Assembly: GCA_965204745.1 (NCBI GenBank)
Contig: OZ242010.1
Span: 3,968,001-4,032,000, forward strand
DNA length: 64,000 nt
Source of the DNA: Candidatus Latescibacterota bacterium
GTDB lineage: Bacteria; Latescibacterota; UBA2968
Direction: 5' to 3'
Every line of letters starts with the position of its first letter. Position 1 is the first letter of the stretch. A program made the position numbers and the translations under genes. Positions 20,514 to 56,458 of this stretch are shown in pieces. The notes beneath the pieces were generated by a model. The model saw nothing but the letters and a program-made list of their open reading frames with translations, was not told where the DNA came from and ran no database searches.

Positions 20514-20907
20514 GGACCTACCCCCTAGCCCCGTTACTCGCAGGAAGGGGGGAATGGCGATGGGTTTTCCGAGGGGAATGGCGATAGGTTTTGCGAGGTG
20601 GGACCTACCCCCTAGCCCCCTTCCTAAGAGGAAGGGGGAACTGTGAGTGGTTTTGCGAGGGGATTGATGAGGGATTTTTAATCGCTTTATGCCCTCGCAC
20701 AACGCCATCAGAGTAGCCATTGATATAAGCCATCAAAGGAACTTTACTCCCCTTTCCTTGCAGGAAAGGGGCCGGGGGATAGGTCCCAAAGCCATCAGAA
20801 CAGCCCTGGATACAAATCTTCAAGAAAGCCATGTGCTCCCCCTTTCCTCGTAGGCACAGGCGTAGCCTACAATGAGCGAAGCGAATAACGGGGGCCGGGG
20901 GGATAGA
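20514..20907. repeat. Composite of the palindromic repeat family
   Basis: Multiple ggacctaccccct..aggaaggggg hairpins; both internal subtypes present. Confidence 0.88.
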
Positions 20908-21029
20908 GCTATGGCGGCGGAATGAGCAGGACATAGCGGAGTGGGAACGATAAAGCGGCGGTAGGGCGGTGGGGCGGTCTCACCTCTTACTTCTCGCCTC
21001 TTACTTCTCGCCTCTTGTATGTTGTCAGA

Positions 21030-21240
21030 AAGGGTTAATTTAGGTGTTGCGCCCTCGCATCGAGACACGCCATCTTGATGCCCTGCTCGGGGAAGGCCGG
21101 CGCCTCTTGAAGGCTATGACCTTGTAAGTAAGATAGGCCCCCTGACCGCCGAGTTGATACCGAAGAGTATCTAAGTCCATCGAGGCTGCATATACAAGAC
21201 CGGTAGACTGGGCAAACAGTCGGGACGCGAACCCGAGCGC
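21030..21240 (+). ncRNA. Predicted IS110 bridge RNA (boundaries approximate)
   Basis: LTG cgcctctt 21101-08, RTG aagtaaga 21126-33, LDG agagtatct 21164-72, RDG atacaaga 21192-99, each guide pair separated by a short hairpin. Confidence 0.85.
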
Positions 21241-21281
21241 ACACCAGACCCCTTCCCCACCCCTCATCACAGGAGGCCCCG

Positions 21282-22289
21282 ATGTCGAACACTCAACCCG
21301 CTTTTGCCGGCATTGATGTCAGTGCCCACACGTTGTCCGTTGCCCTGTCCAGACCCGGACAAGGGGTCATGCAAGCCACCTTTGACAACGCGCCTCGGGC
21401 GCACAAGCACCTGTTGAAGTGGCTCACCAAGGGCGGGCGCATGGTCTCGGTCTGTCTCGAAGCGACCGGGCGTTATAGCTTGGGGGTGGCCTTGGCCTTG
21501 CATCAGCATCACCGCACGCAGGTCATGGTCGTCAATCCCAAAGCGATGAGCAAGTACGCTCACGCCTGCATGCAACGGGCAAAGACGGATGCGAAGGATG
21601 CGTTGTTGATCCTCGATTATGCCGAGCGCATGCCCTTTGTGCCTTGGCAAGTGCCGAGCGAGCACGTCCTGCAACTGCAAACGCTGACCAGACGCATTGA
21701 CCAACTCAAACAGGAGGTCAGCCGAGAACAGAACCGGCACCACGCGCAGGACTACCCCGTCAAGCGTGCCCGCCTCATCACACGCGATATTCAGGTGAAT
21801 ATTCGACACCTCAAACGCCGCATTGCCTACTTGGAAGACCAAGCCCTCAAACTCGTTTTGCAGGACGAGCCCCAAAAGCGTGCCTACCAGCACCTCTGCT
21901 CGGTGCCCGGTATCGCCCAAACGAGTGCCTTGCGGCTCTTGGCCGAGCTGGCCTCCTTGCCAGACGGGATGGAACCGCCCCAATGGGTCGCTCATGCAGG
22001 CCTGGATCCCAAACCCAAACAATCCGGGACTGCCAATCCACAAAGACGCATCTCGAAAACCGGGAATAAGTACCTCCGTCATGCCCTCTATATGCCTGCC
22101 TGGGTGGCCAGCAGACACGAAGTCCATGTCAAAGCCTTCTATGACCAACTCATTGCCCGCGGCAAGAAACCTTTGCAGGCTATCGTTGCGGTGATGCGAA
22201 AATTGCTCCATGCGATCTGGGGCATGTTGCGGCATGACCAAGATTTTGAGGGCGAGAAATTCTATCGAATCGCCCCGCAATCCCCTTGA
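21282..22289 (+). CDS. IS110 recombinase (DEDD RuvC-like + Tnp domain)
   Basis: GIDVS, LEATG, KTDAKDA, VPGIA, QSG, GNKYLR, AVMRKL; AGGAGG RBS. Confidence 0.96.
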   Translation: MSNTQPAFAGIDVSAHTLSVALSRPGQGVMQATFDNAPRAHKHLLKWLTKGGRMVSVCLEATGRYSLGVALALHQHHRTQVMVVNPKAMSKYAHACMQRAKTDAKDALLILDYAERMPFVPWQVPSEHVLQLQTLTRRIDQLKQEVSREQNRHHAQDYPVKRARLITRDIQVNIRHLKRRIAYLEDQALKLVLQDEPQKRAYQHLCSVPGIAQTSALRLLAELASLPDGMEPPQWVAHAGLDPKPKQSGTANPQRRISKTGNKYLRHALYMPAWVASRHEVHVKAFYDQLIARGKKPLQAIVAVMRKLLHAIWGMLRHDQDFEGEKFYRIAPQSP

Positions 22290-22499
22290 CCTTTAAGAGA
22301 GTATCTTACTTCTCGCCTCTTACTTGGGGATAGGTCTTGCGGTGGGGCGGCGAGGATGGGCACGCACGGGCGGATGGGTGGCGCGGTGAGGCCGCACGGG
22401 TGGTTGAGCGGCCATGTCTTTGGATGATGGGTTGCGGCTTGCTTCTTACTCGCTTTCTACTCTTAATTCGCATTGACAGGTGGTTGTCAGGCGGGTATA

Positions 22500-22859
22500 A
22501 TCGAATTGAATTGCGAAAGATTCGGGACCTCGCGGAATTTTATGACCTGTTTATCGACCTTGCAATTCAGCATTACCAGCGGGTCAGTCGCGACGCCATG
22601 AATCGAATCGCAGCACTAAAAGCGTTTCAAAAAAATGGGTACAAATAATTCGCACGCCGTTGAGGTCGGGCAGGTTTTTACGCCGCTTGCGTGGGCAAAA
22701 TGGCTCATCTATCGGTGGGGCATTTTCGACGCGTGGATCGATAGGGCCGCTGTCTGCGGGAATGGAAAATGCAACTGGGCGCAACCGGGTAAGATCAAAC
22801 AGATCCTCGCCCTGGGAAAGCCCGCATGCGATCAACCCCAACTCCCGCTACTCCAGTGA
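22500..22859 (+). pseudogene. Eroded remnant: gene tail plus internally deleted DNA methyltransferase-like ORF
   Basis: 22635..22859 starts MGTNNSHAVEVGQVFTP (motif-X-like) but is only 74 aa; overlaps the tail of a headless ORF ending at 22648. Confidence 0.45.
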
Positions 22860-22889: not shown

Positions 22890-24173
22890 ATGGGAAAATT
22901 TGTCACAGCCTTTCGAGGCACCCTCGCGCCTTTGGGCAACAGGGGTTTTCGCAACCTGCTGATGAGCAACGCGCTTTGGTGGCAGGCCATGTGGATGGAA
23001 ATGATCGTCACAGGGTGGCTCGTCTTCGAGATGACCCACTCGGCGTTTGACGTGGCACTCATCGGATTTTACCGCTCCATCCCTTTGTTGCTCACCGGAT
23101 TCATCGCCGGGCCATTGACCAATCGCGTGGGTCGCGTGCGCGTCGTGATTGTCTCGCAGGGGATCGGCGTCCTCGTCACCGCAGCCATCGGCATTTTGCT
23201 TTGGACCGACCGCTTGGCATTCTGGCACCTTGCGATAGGCGCAGGCATGTTCGGCTTGTCTTGGTCCCTCAACTGGACCGCACGCCGCGCCCTCGTCCCG
23301 GACTTGGTCGGCAAAGCGCGCACGGTCGAAGCGATGATGCTCGAAAGCTTCACGCAAAACATCGCCCGCGTGATCGGCCCGATTTCCAGCGGCTCCCTCT
23401 ACGCACAGTTGGGCGTCAAAGCCTGTTATCTCGCGATTTTTGGCGTCTCGTTCATCTCCTTCCTGTGCATGTTGCGCGTCAACTCGCCCCATCGCCCCGC
23501 GCTTCTCAACACCTCGCAGTGGGCCTTGATGCGCGAGGGCCTAAAATACATGCGGACCAGCCAGCCCATTATGGGCACGTTGCTCATCACGGTCATCATG
23601 AATTTTTTGGCCTTCCCCTACCAGACCATCTTGCCGGTTTTCACGCACGACATCCTCGGCAAAGGCCCTTACGAATACGGCGTATTGGGCGCGTGCAATG
23701 GCATAGGGGCGTTTTTTGGGCTTTACGCCATCAATGTCTTGCGCGCCCGCCTCAGCCGCGGCTGGATCTTTTCTATCGGGTCTCTCTTCCAGTCCCTCGC
23801 GCTGTTCGCCTTTGCCTTTGGCACCTCGTGGATGGCCGCGCAGACCCTGTTCGGAACGCCGGTTGCCCTGGCCTATCCGCTCGCCATTTTCCTCCTCGTG
23901 CTCTCCGGTTTGGGCCAGGCCTTTTTCAGCGTGATGCAAAGCGCCATTATCCTGACCGCTACCCGCGATGACATGAGAGACCGCGCCATGGGATCCCTCA
24001 TCCTCGCCATTGGCGCAGGCCCGCTCGGCCGCTTGCAAATCGGCAAACTCACCGAAGTCTATGGCGCGCCCATGGCCCTCGGCTTGCACACCAGCGTCGC
24101 CGTGATCACCATCGCCACGGTCACGGCCCTTCTGCCCGGGTTTCGCACGCGCATGGCCGAGGAACGAGCATGA
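22890..24173 (+). CDS. MFS transporter (MFS_3-like)
   Basis: About 12 hydrophobic segments, TARRALVPDLV, EGLKYMR, DDMRDRAMG. Confidence 0.9.
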   Translation: MGKFVTAFRGTLAPLGNRGFRNLLMSNALWWQAMWMEMIVTGWLVFEMTHSAFDVALIGFYRSIPLLLTGFIAGPLTNRVGRVRVVIVSQGIGVLVTAAIGILLWTDRLAFWHLAIGAGMFGLSWSLNWTARRALVPDLVGKARTVEAMMLESFTQNIARVIGPISSGSLYAQLGVKACYLAIFGVSFISFLCMLRVNSPHRPALLNTSQWALMREGLKYMRTSQPIMGTLLITVIMNFLAFPYQTILPVFTHDILGKGPYEYGVLGACNGIGAFFGLYAINVLRARLSRGWIFSIGSLFQSLALFAFAFGTSWMAAQTLFGTPVALAYPLAIFLLVLSGLGQAFFSVMQSAIILTATRDDMRDRAMGSLILAIGAGPLGRLQIGKLTEVYGAPMALGLHTSVAVITIATVTALLPGFRTRMAEERA

Positions 24174-55115: not shown

Positions 55116-55153
55116 GAGGCGAGAGGCAAGAGGTAAGATACTCTCTTAAAAGG

Positions 55154-56161
55154 TCAAGGGGTTTTCGGGGTGATTCGATAGAATTTTTCGCCCTCAAAAT
55201 CTTGGTCATGGCGCAACATGCCCCAGATCGAATGGAGCAACTTTCGCATCACCGCAACGATAGCCTGCAAAGGTTTCTTGCCGCGGGCGATGAGTTGGTC
55301 ATAGAAGGCTTTGACATGGCCTTCGTGTCTGATGGCCACCCAGGCAGGCATATAGAGGGCATGGCGGAGGTACTTATTCCCGGTTTTCGAGATGCGTCTT
55401 TGTGGATTGGCGGTTCCGGATTGTTTGGGTTTGGGATCCAGGCCTGCATGTGCGACCCACTGGGGCGGTTGCATCTCCTCTGGCAAAAGGGTCAACTCGG
55501 CCAAGAGCCGCAAGGCACTCGTTTGCGCGATGCCAGGCGTCGAGCAGAGGCGTTGGTAGGCACGCTTGAGGGGCTCATCGTGCAAAACGAGATCGAGGGC
55601 TTGGCTTTCCAAGTATGCAATCCGGCGTTTGAAGTGTCGAATATTCACCTGAATATCGCGTGCGATGAGACGTGTGCTGCGGATGTGGTAGCTCTGCGCG
55701 TGGTTGCGGCTCTGTTCGCGGATGATCTCCTGCTTGAGTTGGTCAATGCGTCTGGTGAGGGCTTGCAGTTGAAGCCGTTGCTCGCTCGGCGCTTGCCAAG
55801 GCACAAAAGGCATGCGCTCGGCATAGTCGAGGATCAACAACGCATCCTTCGCATCCGTCTTCGCCCGTTGCATGCAGGCTTGGGCGTACTTGCTCATCGC
55901 TTTGGGATTGACGACCATGACCTTTGTGTGGCGATGCCGATGCAAGGCCAAGGCCACCCCCAAACTGTAAAGCCCGGTCGCTTCGAGGCACACAGAGACC
56001 ATGTGCCCGCCCTTCGTGAGCCACTTCAGCAACCGCTTATGCGCTTGGGGATCATTGGCAAAGGTCGCTTGCATGACAGCTTGTCCGGGTCTGGACAGGG
56101 CAACGGACAACGTGCGGGCACTGACATCAATGCCGGCAAAAGCGGGGTGAGATTTCGACAT
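55154..56161 (-). CDS. IS110 recombinase
   Basis: 335 aa, clearly homologous to but diverged from 21282..22289; same catalytic motifs; AGGAGG RBS. Confidence 0.96.
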   Translation of the reverse strand: MSKSHPAFAGIDVSARTLSVALSRPGQAVMQATFANDPQAHKRLLKWLTKGGHMVSVCLEATGLYSLGVALALHRHRHTKVMVVNPKAMSKYAQACMQRAKTDAKDALLILDYAERMPFVPWQAPSEQRLQLQALTRRIDQLKQEIIREQSRNHAQSYHIRSTRLIARDIQVNIRHFKRRIAYLESQALDLVLHDEPLKRAYQRLCSTPGIAQTSALRLLAELTLLPEEMQPPQWVAHAGLDPKPKQSGTANPQRRISKTGNKYLRHALYMPAWVAIRHEGHVKAFYDQLIARGKKPLQAIVAVMRKLLHSIWGMLRHDQDFEGEKFYRITPKTP

Positions 56162-56199
56162 GGGGGCCTCCTGTGATGAGGGGGTTGTAAGGGATCTGG

Positions 56200-56415
56200 T
56201 GCGCGCTCGGGGTCGCGTCCCGACCATTGACGCCAAGTCTACCGGTCTTGTATATGCAGCCTCAAGGGGCTTAGATACTCTTCGGCATAGACCCGGCGGT
56301 CGGGGGGCCTATCTTACCTACAAGGTCATCGCCTTCAAGAGGGGCCGGCCTTCCCCGAGCCGGGCATCAAGATGGCTTATCTCGATACGAGGGCGCAACT
56401 CCTAATTAACCCTTA
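56200..56415 (-). ncRNA. Predicted IS110 bridge RNA (boundaries approximate)
   Basis: On minus: LTG cccctctt (56337-44), RTG aggtaaga (56312-19), LDG agagtatct (56273-81), RDG atacaaga (56246-53). Confidence 0.85.
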
Positions 56416-56458
56416 CTTCCAAGATACAAGAGGGGAGAGGCGAGATGGGAGTTTATTA

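Follow-up and report, generated by a model that had tools for sequence, protein, structure and literature searches.

How does an insertion sequence (IS) come to occupy short tandem repeats of one kind dozens of times in a single genome? This question is raised by an IS110-family element (copy 1) located on the forward strand at 21013-22307 of the analysed stretch of DNA, a window of 64,000 nt that covers positions 3968001-4032000 of the single 5.48-Mb contig (56.5% G+C) of an uncultured Latescibacterota genome. The initial annotation of the window had proposed that this element, together with a second copy at 55135-56431 on the minus strand (copy 2), carries bridge RNAs of the IS621 type whose guides are re-programmed to heptamer microsatellites. 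The anatomy of the element, the conserved fold of its leader, the complementarity of the guides to the flanks and to the element ends, the covariation of guides with targets and a gradient of site occupancy were observed, and on this basis we consider it highly probable that the family represents a bridge-RNA-guided IS110-group element homing to heptamer tracts.

Both copies are bounded by TCTT. In copy 1, the left junction reads ctcgcc-TCTT-gtatgttg (TCTT at 21013-21016) and the right junction agagta-TCTT-acttctcg (TCTT at 22304-22307), which places the CT core at 21014-21015 and 22305-22306. Copy 2, read on the minus strand, is delimited as cccc-TCTT and TCTT-acct, with the outer context ctcccc to the left and acctcttg to the right. 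The left end of copy 1 contains four short strings on the forward strand. The left target guide (LTG), cgcc+tctt at 21101-21108, has the sense of the target top strand, and the right target guide (RTG), aagtaaga at 21126-21133, is the reverse complement of tctt+actt; both were assigned from the sequence and from a comparison of the 52 copies described below. The left donor guide (LDG), agagtatct at 21164-21172, equals the element right end plus the core, while the right donor guide (RDG), atacaaga at 21192-21199, is the reverse complement of tcttgtat, the element left end. The corresponding target guides of copy 2, identified by alignment, are cccctctt at 56337-56344 and aggtaaga at 56312-56319 (minus strand). 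The four target-guide strings were thus recovered exactly where the initial annotation had placed them, and the substitutions cGcc/cCcc and aAgt/aGgt, which mirror those of the targets, fall in homologous alignment columns. The donor guides, as had also been claimed, are identical in the two copies and match the reconstructed circle junction; among all copies, the element ends are matched in 51/52. The left ends of copies 1 and 2 share 87% mean identity in the pairwise alignment, and the A-type and B-type subfamilies that they represent are approximately 11% diverged along the entire element. The guide difference between the window copies thus dates back a long time and does not reflect a recent switch.

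A blastn search of the whole genome with copy 1 identified 52 full-length copies and approximately 23 fragment matches. The element is about 1.3 kb long (1297 bp for full-length B copies); elsewhere in the genome, four copies are 95-98% and 47 copies 88-90% identical to copy 1. Recent activity is indicated by the 30 copies that are identical over their full length (1297 bp), by eight more that are identical among themselves and by the 335-amino-acid frame, which is intact in 51/52 copies (the exception, at genome position 3890248, has a stop at residue 262). TCTT was present at both junctions in 48/52 copies, and the right side reads TCTC in the remaining 4/52 (genome 602779, 1297033, 1927367 and 5150715). 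The copies fall into four guide types: CCCC-TCTT / TCTT-ACCT (B-type; 45 copies, including copy 2), CGCC / ACTT (A-type; four copies, including copy 1), TGCC / ACTT (two copies) and TCCC-TCTC / TCTC-ACCT (one copy, at genome 1297033). The targets named for the A-type (CGCC/ACTT) and B-type (CCCC/ACCT) loops are cgccTCTTactt and ccccTCTTacct, respectively.

Guides and flanks were compared over 8 nt on each side (16 positions), with all 52 copies retained. The numbers of mismatches (left, right) were 0,0 in 22 copies, 0,1 in 19, 0,2 in one, 0,3 in two, 1,0 in three, 1,2 in one and 2,0 in four; at most one mismatch over the 16 positions was recorded for 41/52 copies. The genome-wide expectation that guides predict flanks was borne out by the association of particular bases. 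On the left side, a flank G was found with a guide G in 3/6 copies and with a guide C in 0/46 (Fisher p=9e-4), and on the right side, a flank T accompanied a guide T in 4/6 copies versus 1/46 otherwise (Fisher p=2.7e-4). Three of the four guide variants in the genome fit their own flanks best. In copy 1297033, the base after CT is altered in both halves of the target loop (TCTC / GAGA), and the right junction of this copy reads TCTC.

The comparison was extended to relatives in other genomes of the phylum. Two congeneric Latescibacterota genomes harbour close relatives. In G091 (74% amino acid identity, 18 fetched copies, most of them in heptamer tracts), CTCGCCTCT and, as reverse complement, TCTCCCT serve as guides, and the flanks read ctcgccTCT / TCTCccgt. 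In G082 (77-79% identity), seven copies were fetched, all outside tracts, and none of the five that were scored attained 21 nt; their guides consist of ATCCTCCTT or ATCCCCCTT, and TCTTTTCT. Orthologues with 52-63% identity and non-tract flanks were found in seven more genomes, and several of them, judged by eye, precede GC-rich hairpins of the repetitive extragenic palindromic (REP) type. When all guide sets of 15 lineages (10 genomes) were scored against all of their flank sets, the matched total was 191.7, compared to a permutation mean of 130.7 (sd 6.9, maximum 170.7), and 0/200,000 permutations were as high. The lineages' own guides were the best in 14/15 cases; two G082 loci entered this scoring with the left side only, as their right end was not located, and the left guide of one lineage was re-anchored by one base by hand. 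With a single lineage per genome, the total was 133.7 versus 87.0, and again 0/200,000 permutations were as high. The distribution of flanks supports a microsatellite retargeting that is confined to part of the lineage, namely the present genome (G000) and G091, and does not include G082 or the seven more distant genomes.

The relatives also help to define the core. The initial annotation had taken the shared TCTT as a CT-containing core; the CT part of this claim held, but the crossover core is better assigned to CT alone because the two junctions of relatives differ outside it (T-CT-T and T-CT-C in G091, C-CT-T and T-CT-T in G082), and the flanking T residues merely coincide between donor and target. 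This agrees with IS621, for which cleavage of the top strands immediately 3' of CT has been described (Hiraizumi et al. 2024, PMC11208158). In another of the genomes, G041 (L035, L043, L048), 2/3 copies have the left junction gcgcAT/TGTAT and the right junction TATCT/AACGT, and their left guide ends in AT; since the left junction has AT and the right junction CT, the first core base differs between target and donor there.

The four guide strings all lie in loop strands of a two-module consensus fold, obtained with RNAalifold from 11 leaders (the A and B leaders and a single leader for each of the nine other genomes, other copies being left out). The target-binding module (21090-21143) and the donor-binding module (21148-21213), both on the forward strand, consist each of an outer stem, an internal loop and an inner hairpin, the latter being AAGG-CUAUGA-CCUU in the target module. 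The small hairpin between guide halves that the initial annotation had noticed was recovered in both modules, the AAGG/CCTT and AGNC/GNCT pairs being formed in 100% of cells among the 11 relatives. In the target module, helices 1 and 2 are paired in 93.5% and 100%; in the donor module, helix 3 has both-side changes in 9/13 pairs, and helix 4, in which one pair covaries, is paired in 100%. Overall, 92.5% of cells pair on the consensus fold, compared to 33-54% after the partners had been shifted by 1-3 columns. Both-side changes, located mainly in the donor-module outer stem, were observed in 11/28 pairs versus 6.0 in shuffles, and 0/500 shuffles were as high, a figure that is not a probability since the aligned leaders are related and such controls overstate their independence.

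A covariance model of the 133-position bridge-RNA core (R1) detected leaders outside its build, in every match with the full model covered, just upstream of a recombinase gene and on the same strand. These were elements from Gemmatimonadota (101.7 bits) and from plasmids of Acidisarcina (70.9 bits), Vibrio (55.2 bits), Salinibacter (34.2 bits) and E. coli (31.2 bits, E 2e-6 to 2e-5, the E-values being rough owing to a short calibration). The E. coli leader belongs to an IS621-like element, with a protein match of 2e-72 to IS621, and not to IS621 itself. The core of copy 2, with both modules, was matched at 56227-56359 (minus strand) with 143.3 bits, which holds by construction as this leader was used to build R1. 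One additional R1 match in the window, at 23484-23621 on the minus strand (14 bits, E 0.11), was judged from its low score and the sequence alone to be due to chance. The two-module fold, the IS110-group recombinase and the guide-target covariation support the identification of the leader as a putative two-loop bridge RNA of the IS621 type, in agreement with the layout first proposed.

All 52 insertions are located in heptamer tracts of the CCTCTYR type. In copy 1, the left flank is a degenerate tract at 20980-21012 (tcacctc ttacttc tcgcctc ttacttc tcgcc), ending in cgcc, and the tract continues on the right side at 22308-22325 (acttctc gcctctt actt), beginning with actt. An in-phase TCT was present in at least three of the six neighbouring heptamer slots in 47/52 copies, compared to 228/5000 random TCTT sites, and in at least one slot in 52/52. 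A stricter measure, lag-7 identity, placed 39/52 insertions in a tract versus 12/2000 random positions. The 13/52 copies that it called "no tract", copy 1 included, were so classified because their tracts are degenerate or 14-periodic, and the measure was replaced by the in-phase TCT count. The claim that the guides are aimed at 7-bp repeats was thus upheld; the 12-nt target CCCC-TCTT-ACCT covers approximately 1.7 heptamer units. Genome-wide, the tracts with 7-nt periodicity number 482, amount to about 27 kb and belong to several families, and only the CT-rich AAGAGGC family (equal to GCCTCTT) is used by the element. The families comprise AACTGAC (115), ACCACTG (79), ACTACTG (71), AAGAGGC (66) and others. 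A second IS110 lineage aimed at the other heptamer families was ruled out, as all 57 PF01548 matches in the genome come from this single IS110 family.

The occupancy of potential sites was determined by classing all 35,770 unfilled NNNN-TCTT-NNNN sites of the genome against the guides. For the B guide, 20 perfect sites were filled and five free, and the counts were 18 filled and 70 free with one wobble (rU:dG or rG:dT), 0 and 142 with one true mismatch, 1 and 290 with one mismatch plus one wobble, and 4 and 361 with two mismatches. Two further B-type copies, which have the TCTC right junction and two right-side mismatches, have no free-site class to be compared with. Occupancy differed between perfect and wobble sites (p=8e-8) and between wobble and true-mismatch sites (Fisher p=9e-9); the wobble class consists mostly of G for A at position +1 after TCTT, so that position and pair type are partly confounded. 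The tolerance of rU:dG and rG:dT is what pairing between RNA and DNA predicts. For the A guide, two perfect sites were filled and 24 free, with 1 and 15 for one wobble and 1 and 66 for one mismatch. One of the five free perfect B-type targets (genome 3304815) lies 14 nt downstream of an existing copy.

The recombinase gene of copy 1 (21282-22289, forward strand) encodes 335 amino acids plus stop, and an intact frame of the same length was found in copy 2 (55154-56161, minus strand). The protein has a DEDD RuvC-like domain and a Tnp domain, corresponding in Pfam to DEDD_Tnp_IS110 (PF01548, 4.9e-26, 91.8 bits against a cut-off of 29) and Transposase_20 (PF02371, 3.1e-20, 72.8 bits against a cut-off of 21.3). 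Full-length matches were obtained to ISCro4 (E 3.3e-36) and IS621 (E 3e-33). In the alignment, D12, E60, D103, D106 and S248-G249 stand opposite D11, E60, D102, D105 and S241-G242 of IS621, with a chain numbering offset of 2 worked out by hand; the roles of the IS621 residues are described in PMC11208158. The gene is preceded by a left end of 268 nt (21014-21281) and followed by a right end of only about 15-17 nt, counted from the stop codon (22287-22289) to 22306. The element belongs to the IS110 group, that of the bridge recombinase elements, because of this combination of a 268-nt left end and a ~15-nt right end, compared to the long right end in IS1111.

The junction reconstruction revealed a -10-like hexamer, TATGTT, in the left end (21018-21023) and a -35-like hexamer, TTGACC, in the right end (22286-22291), overlapping the stop codon. 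The arrangement TTGAnn, a 17-nt spacer (18 in the B-type; the A-type spacer was counted by hand) and TAnnnT was observed from right end to left end in 14/14 reconstructed junctions from 10 genomes. The two hexamers would pair into a predicted sigma-70-type promoter only in the circular element. A -35 donated by the tract to integrated copies was rejected, as TTGCCT/TTGCAT occurs at the right distance in just 4-5/52. Sequence of the circle junction was absent from the assembly outside the element copies, which is expected for the integrated state.

By analogy with IS621, from which we infer transcription, RNA-protein binding and the chemistry, the following course of events may be envisaged. 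Excision of the circle would bring the right-end TTGACC next to the left-end TATGTT or TATCTT, and the resulting junction promoter would drive a bridge RNA of approximately 180-200 nt and then the recombinase gene. The RNA would fold into two stem, internal-loop and hairpin modules. In the target loop, the 5' strand would pair with the left target on its bottom strand (CCCCT-CT in the B-type, CGCCT-CT in the A-type) and the 3' strand with the right target on its top strand (CT-TACCT or CT-TACTT). The donor loop would pair likewise with the circle junction AGAGTAT-CT-TGTAT. The DEDD/Ser recombinase would then exchange strands at the CT core, with no duplication beyond it. Because the 12-nt target spans about 1.7 heptamer units, the CCTCTYR tracts may serve as a multi-copy landing pad, and guide variants would open other repeat variants. 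A dinucleotide "ua" after the right target guide is complementary to the donor left end and looks handshake-like by eye; handshake guides are defined in PMC11208158, and this assignment is made here by analogy. The initial annotation had further suggested that the element may recombine tracts with each other, for which no support was found: the specificity of the donor loop is tied to the element ends, and outside the copies the genome contains nothing resembling the junction.

A match between guides and flanks might have been inherited if a segmental duplication, or a larger repeat with the element as its passenger, had copied the element along with its flanks. The A-type copies do reside in a short tract within one dispersed composite repeat, with flanks similar over 100-200 nt, and many short repeats surround copy 1. 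However, the flanks of A-type copies are only ~77-90% alike versus 95-100% for the elements, and empty members of the repeat span the insertion point (genome 3370077-3370255 and 3459589-3459787); because of these empty members and the far more diverged flanks, the A-type copies are regarded as separate insertions. Past the tract, no relationship is seen among the sequences next to the 45 B-type copies, of which 30 are identical, and relatives in nine other genomes carry different guides matching different flanks, which leaves common inheritance very improbable. Nor is it credible, except as a slender chance, that sites are chosen by the protein or by DNA-DNA homology, the loop strings being recombinase binding sites that resemble the target. 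No RNA was observed, the strings measure just 7-8 nt and an abundant low-complexity repeat forms the target, all of which would suit such a scheme. Against it, the strings lie in unpaired strands of a fold backed by compensatory changes, one guide is target-sense and the other antisense as in IS621, the tolerated deviations are RNA-DNA wobbles (18/88 versus 0/142), and the recombinase has full-length homology to two RNA-guided enzymes with solved structures. A different matter is whether the association with tracts is a by-product of a genuine bridge-RNA IS, with guide variants arising by neutral drift and not by adaptive spread. The ~11% divergence of A and B over the whole element, the mere 2/26 perfect sites filled by the A-type and the sister-genome relatives in G082 outside tracts are compatible with drift, but the B guide fills 20/25 of its perfect sites, so that new guides would open many free sites (e.g., TGCCTCTTGCCT, which occurs 241 times in the genome), and the second genome, G091, uses a different guide pair and again tracts. 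Drift is possible, although we think it rather unlikely. We hold with similar reserve that exhaustion of sites, 20/25 perfect ones being filled, drives a radiation of guides in which new transposition needs wobble sites or guide mutations, and that the 52 insertions are a natural in vivo specificity map.

Several observations weigh against homing by a bridge RNA as set out above. The guides fit poorly in 8/52 copies. Four B-type copies are inserted at TACC instead of CCCC, and two others (1927367 and 5150715) have the right flank Cccgt with three mismatches. The B-type copy 778453 has two right-side mismatches, and copy 602779 (TGCC..ACTT guide) has 1+2 mismatches, its own guides not being the best; the left end of this copy resembles an A/B mosaic. 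A single dispersed repeat family harbours the A-type copies without exception, so that their flanks are paralogous and not independent. The partial confounding of the wobble class and the relatedness of the aligned leaders, both mentioned above, belong here as well. A search of Rfam 15 with 20900-22400 (E up to 10) returned only chance microRNA and lncRNA matches, and no RNA run with the element sequence was found, which says nothing on expression. According to a 2026 preprint, a half-matching bridge RNA can suffice for off-target insertion of IS621, and this could explain the copies with a perfect left and a poor right side. The Cccgt flank of 1927367 and 5150715 is the target type of the G091 relative and not that of their own guide.

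Further observations concern the copies and their surroundings. A head-to-tail pair at genome 1121590-1124183, separated by "acc", corresponds to insertions in adjacent heptamer units of one tract. The ~23 fragment matches include solo left-end pieces of 63-187 nt and internally deleted copies (e.g., genome 950643-950704, 2089406-2089468, 4730099-4730166 and 2972658-2972844), which could be decay products or abortive events. The orientation of the copies (32:20) resembles that of unfilled sites (438:313) and gave no signal of a replication-strand bias. The cumulative GC skew climbs along most of the contig, with a minimum at 0.74 Mb and a maximum at 5.47 Mb, and has no clear V or two-arm shape. 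The neighbourhood of copy 1 is a mosaic of dispersed repeats, in which G-rich heptamer-like runs (gtagggc ggtgggg cgg...) stand by the CT-rich tract, and the flanking segments 20863-20917 and 22413-22457 recur with 96-100% identity at dozens of genome positions. DNA nearly identical to 20700-22600 was found in sponge metagenome and marine metagenome runs from several studies, which share 0.23-0.54 of the sampled words with this segment in short contigs broken at repeats. Contig joints in four Logan runs that skip 1431-1515 nt were not counted as empty sites, as their sides measure just 21-36 nt with undefined sequence between them; they most likely represent other members of the dispersed repeat.

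The mechanism and the natural covariation of guides with targets were already published in 2024, and the Latescibacterota element is an instance and not a new principle. Two reports (Durrant et al. 2024, PMC11208160; Hiraizumi et al. 2024, PMC11208158) describe a two-loop RNA, a CT core, a junction promoter and repeat (REP) targets, as well as guide-target covariation over thousands of natural elements with a consensus target motif for each guide pair. The present element shares with IS621 a DEDD plus Tnp recombinase with the same catalytic residues, by alignment (PMC11208160, PMC11208158), the long left end, the short right end and the predicted circle-junction promoter, the two-loop layout of the RNA in which LTG/RTG and LDG/RDG surround a CT core, and a multi-copy genomic repeat as natural target (PMC11208160). 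A tolerance of guide G with target A is likewise known for IS621, at position 4, where ATCGGGCCTAC is encoded versus the natural ATCAGGCCTAC (PMC11208160). In contrast to IS621, the recombinase identity is just ~30-34%, and the guides are approximately symmetric, with about 7 nt per side including CT, compared to the nine-base LTG and four-base RTG of IS621 (PMC11208160); longer right guides are described for some orthologues (PMC11208160, PMC11208158). The target is a 7-bp tandem repeat instead of a REP hairpin, and the host is an uncultured Latescibacterota genome instead of E. coli. ISCro4 (PDB 9t56) was the best match among solved structures (E 3.3e-36, residues 7-332), in a comparison of protein sequences only. 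The IS1111-group seekRNA elements of Siddiquee et al. 2024 reportedly belong to the same recombinase superfamily and also choose their targets by RNA. In IS1111 elements, the RNA is located in the right end, which is long (PMC11208160), unlike in the element described here, with its 268-nt left end and ~15-nt right end. ISPpu10/ISPpu9 and other REP-targeting IS110 elements are likewise guided by bridge RNAs, into the many identical copies of a single short intergenic sequence (10.64898/2026.03.19.712850); by description, their targets are structured and REP-type, whereas the present one is a degenerate microsatellite without a palindrome. In the literature searched, no paper linking IS110 elements to tandem-repeat targets was found, several of the matching papers dealing with tandem cargo or arrays and not with targets, though the supplementary target tables of PMC11208160 may include cases. 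What is new here is the Latescibacterota host clade, the use of a microsatellite as target and the filling of nearly all perfect sites.

The finding leaves the known mechanism unchanged and places the bridge-RNA logic of IS621 in an uncultured Latescibacterota genome, in the form of a very active, mechanistically ordinary IS110-type element with 52 copies. Its most useful by-products are the nearly saturated perfect sites and the contrast of wobbles with mismatches. If exhaustion of sites is indeed at work, guide mutations would unlock repeat variants, some of them with hundreds of free copies, and the in vivo map would indicate tolerance of rU:dG and rG:dT but of no other single mismatch. The 52 mostly identical copies beside hundreds of unfilled near-targets constitute a natural dose-response of insertion versus complementarity. 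The split between wobbles and mismatches bears on the off-target rules of bridge recombinases as genome-editing tools, for which this orthologue, with 335 amino acids and approximately symmetric 7+7 guides, is a candidate enzyme.

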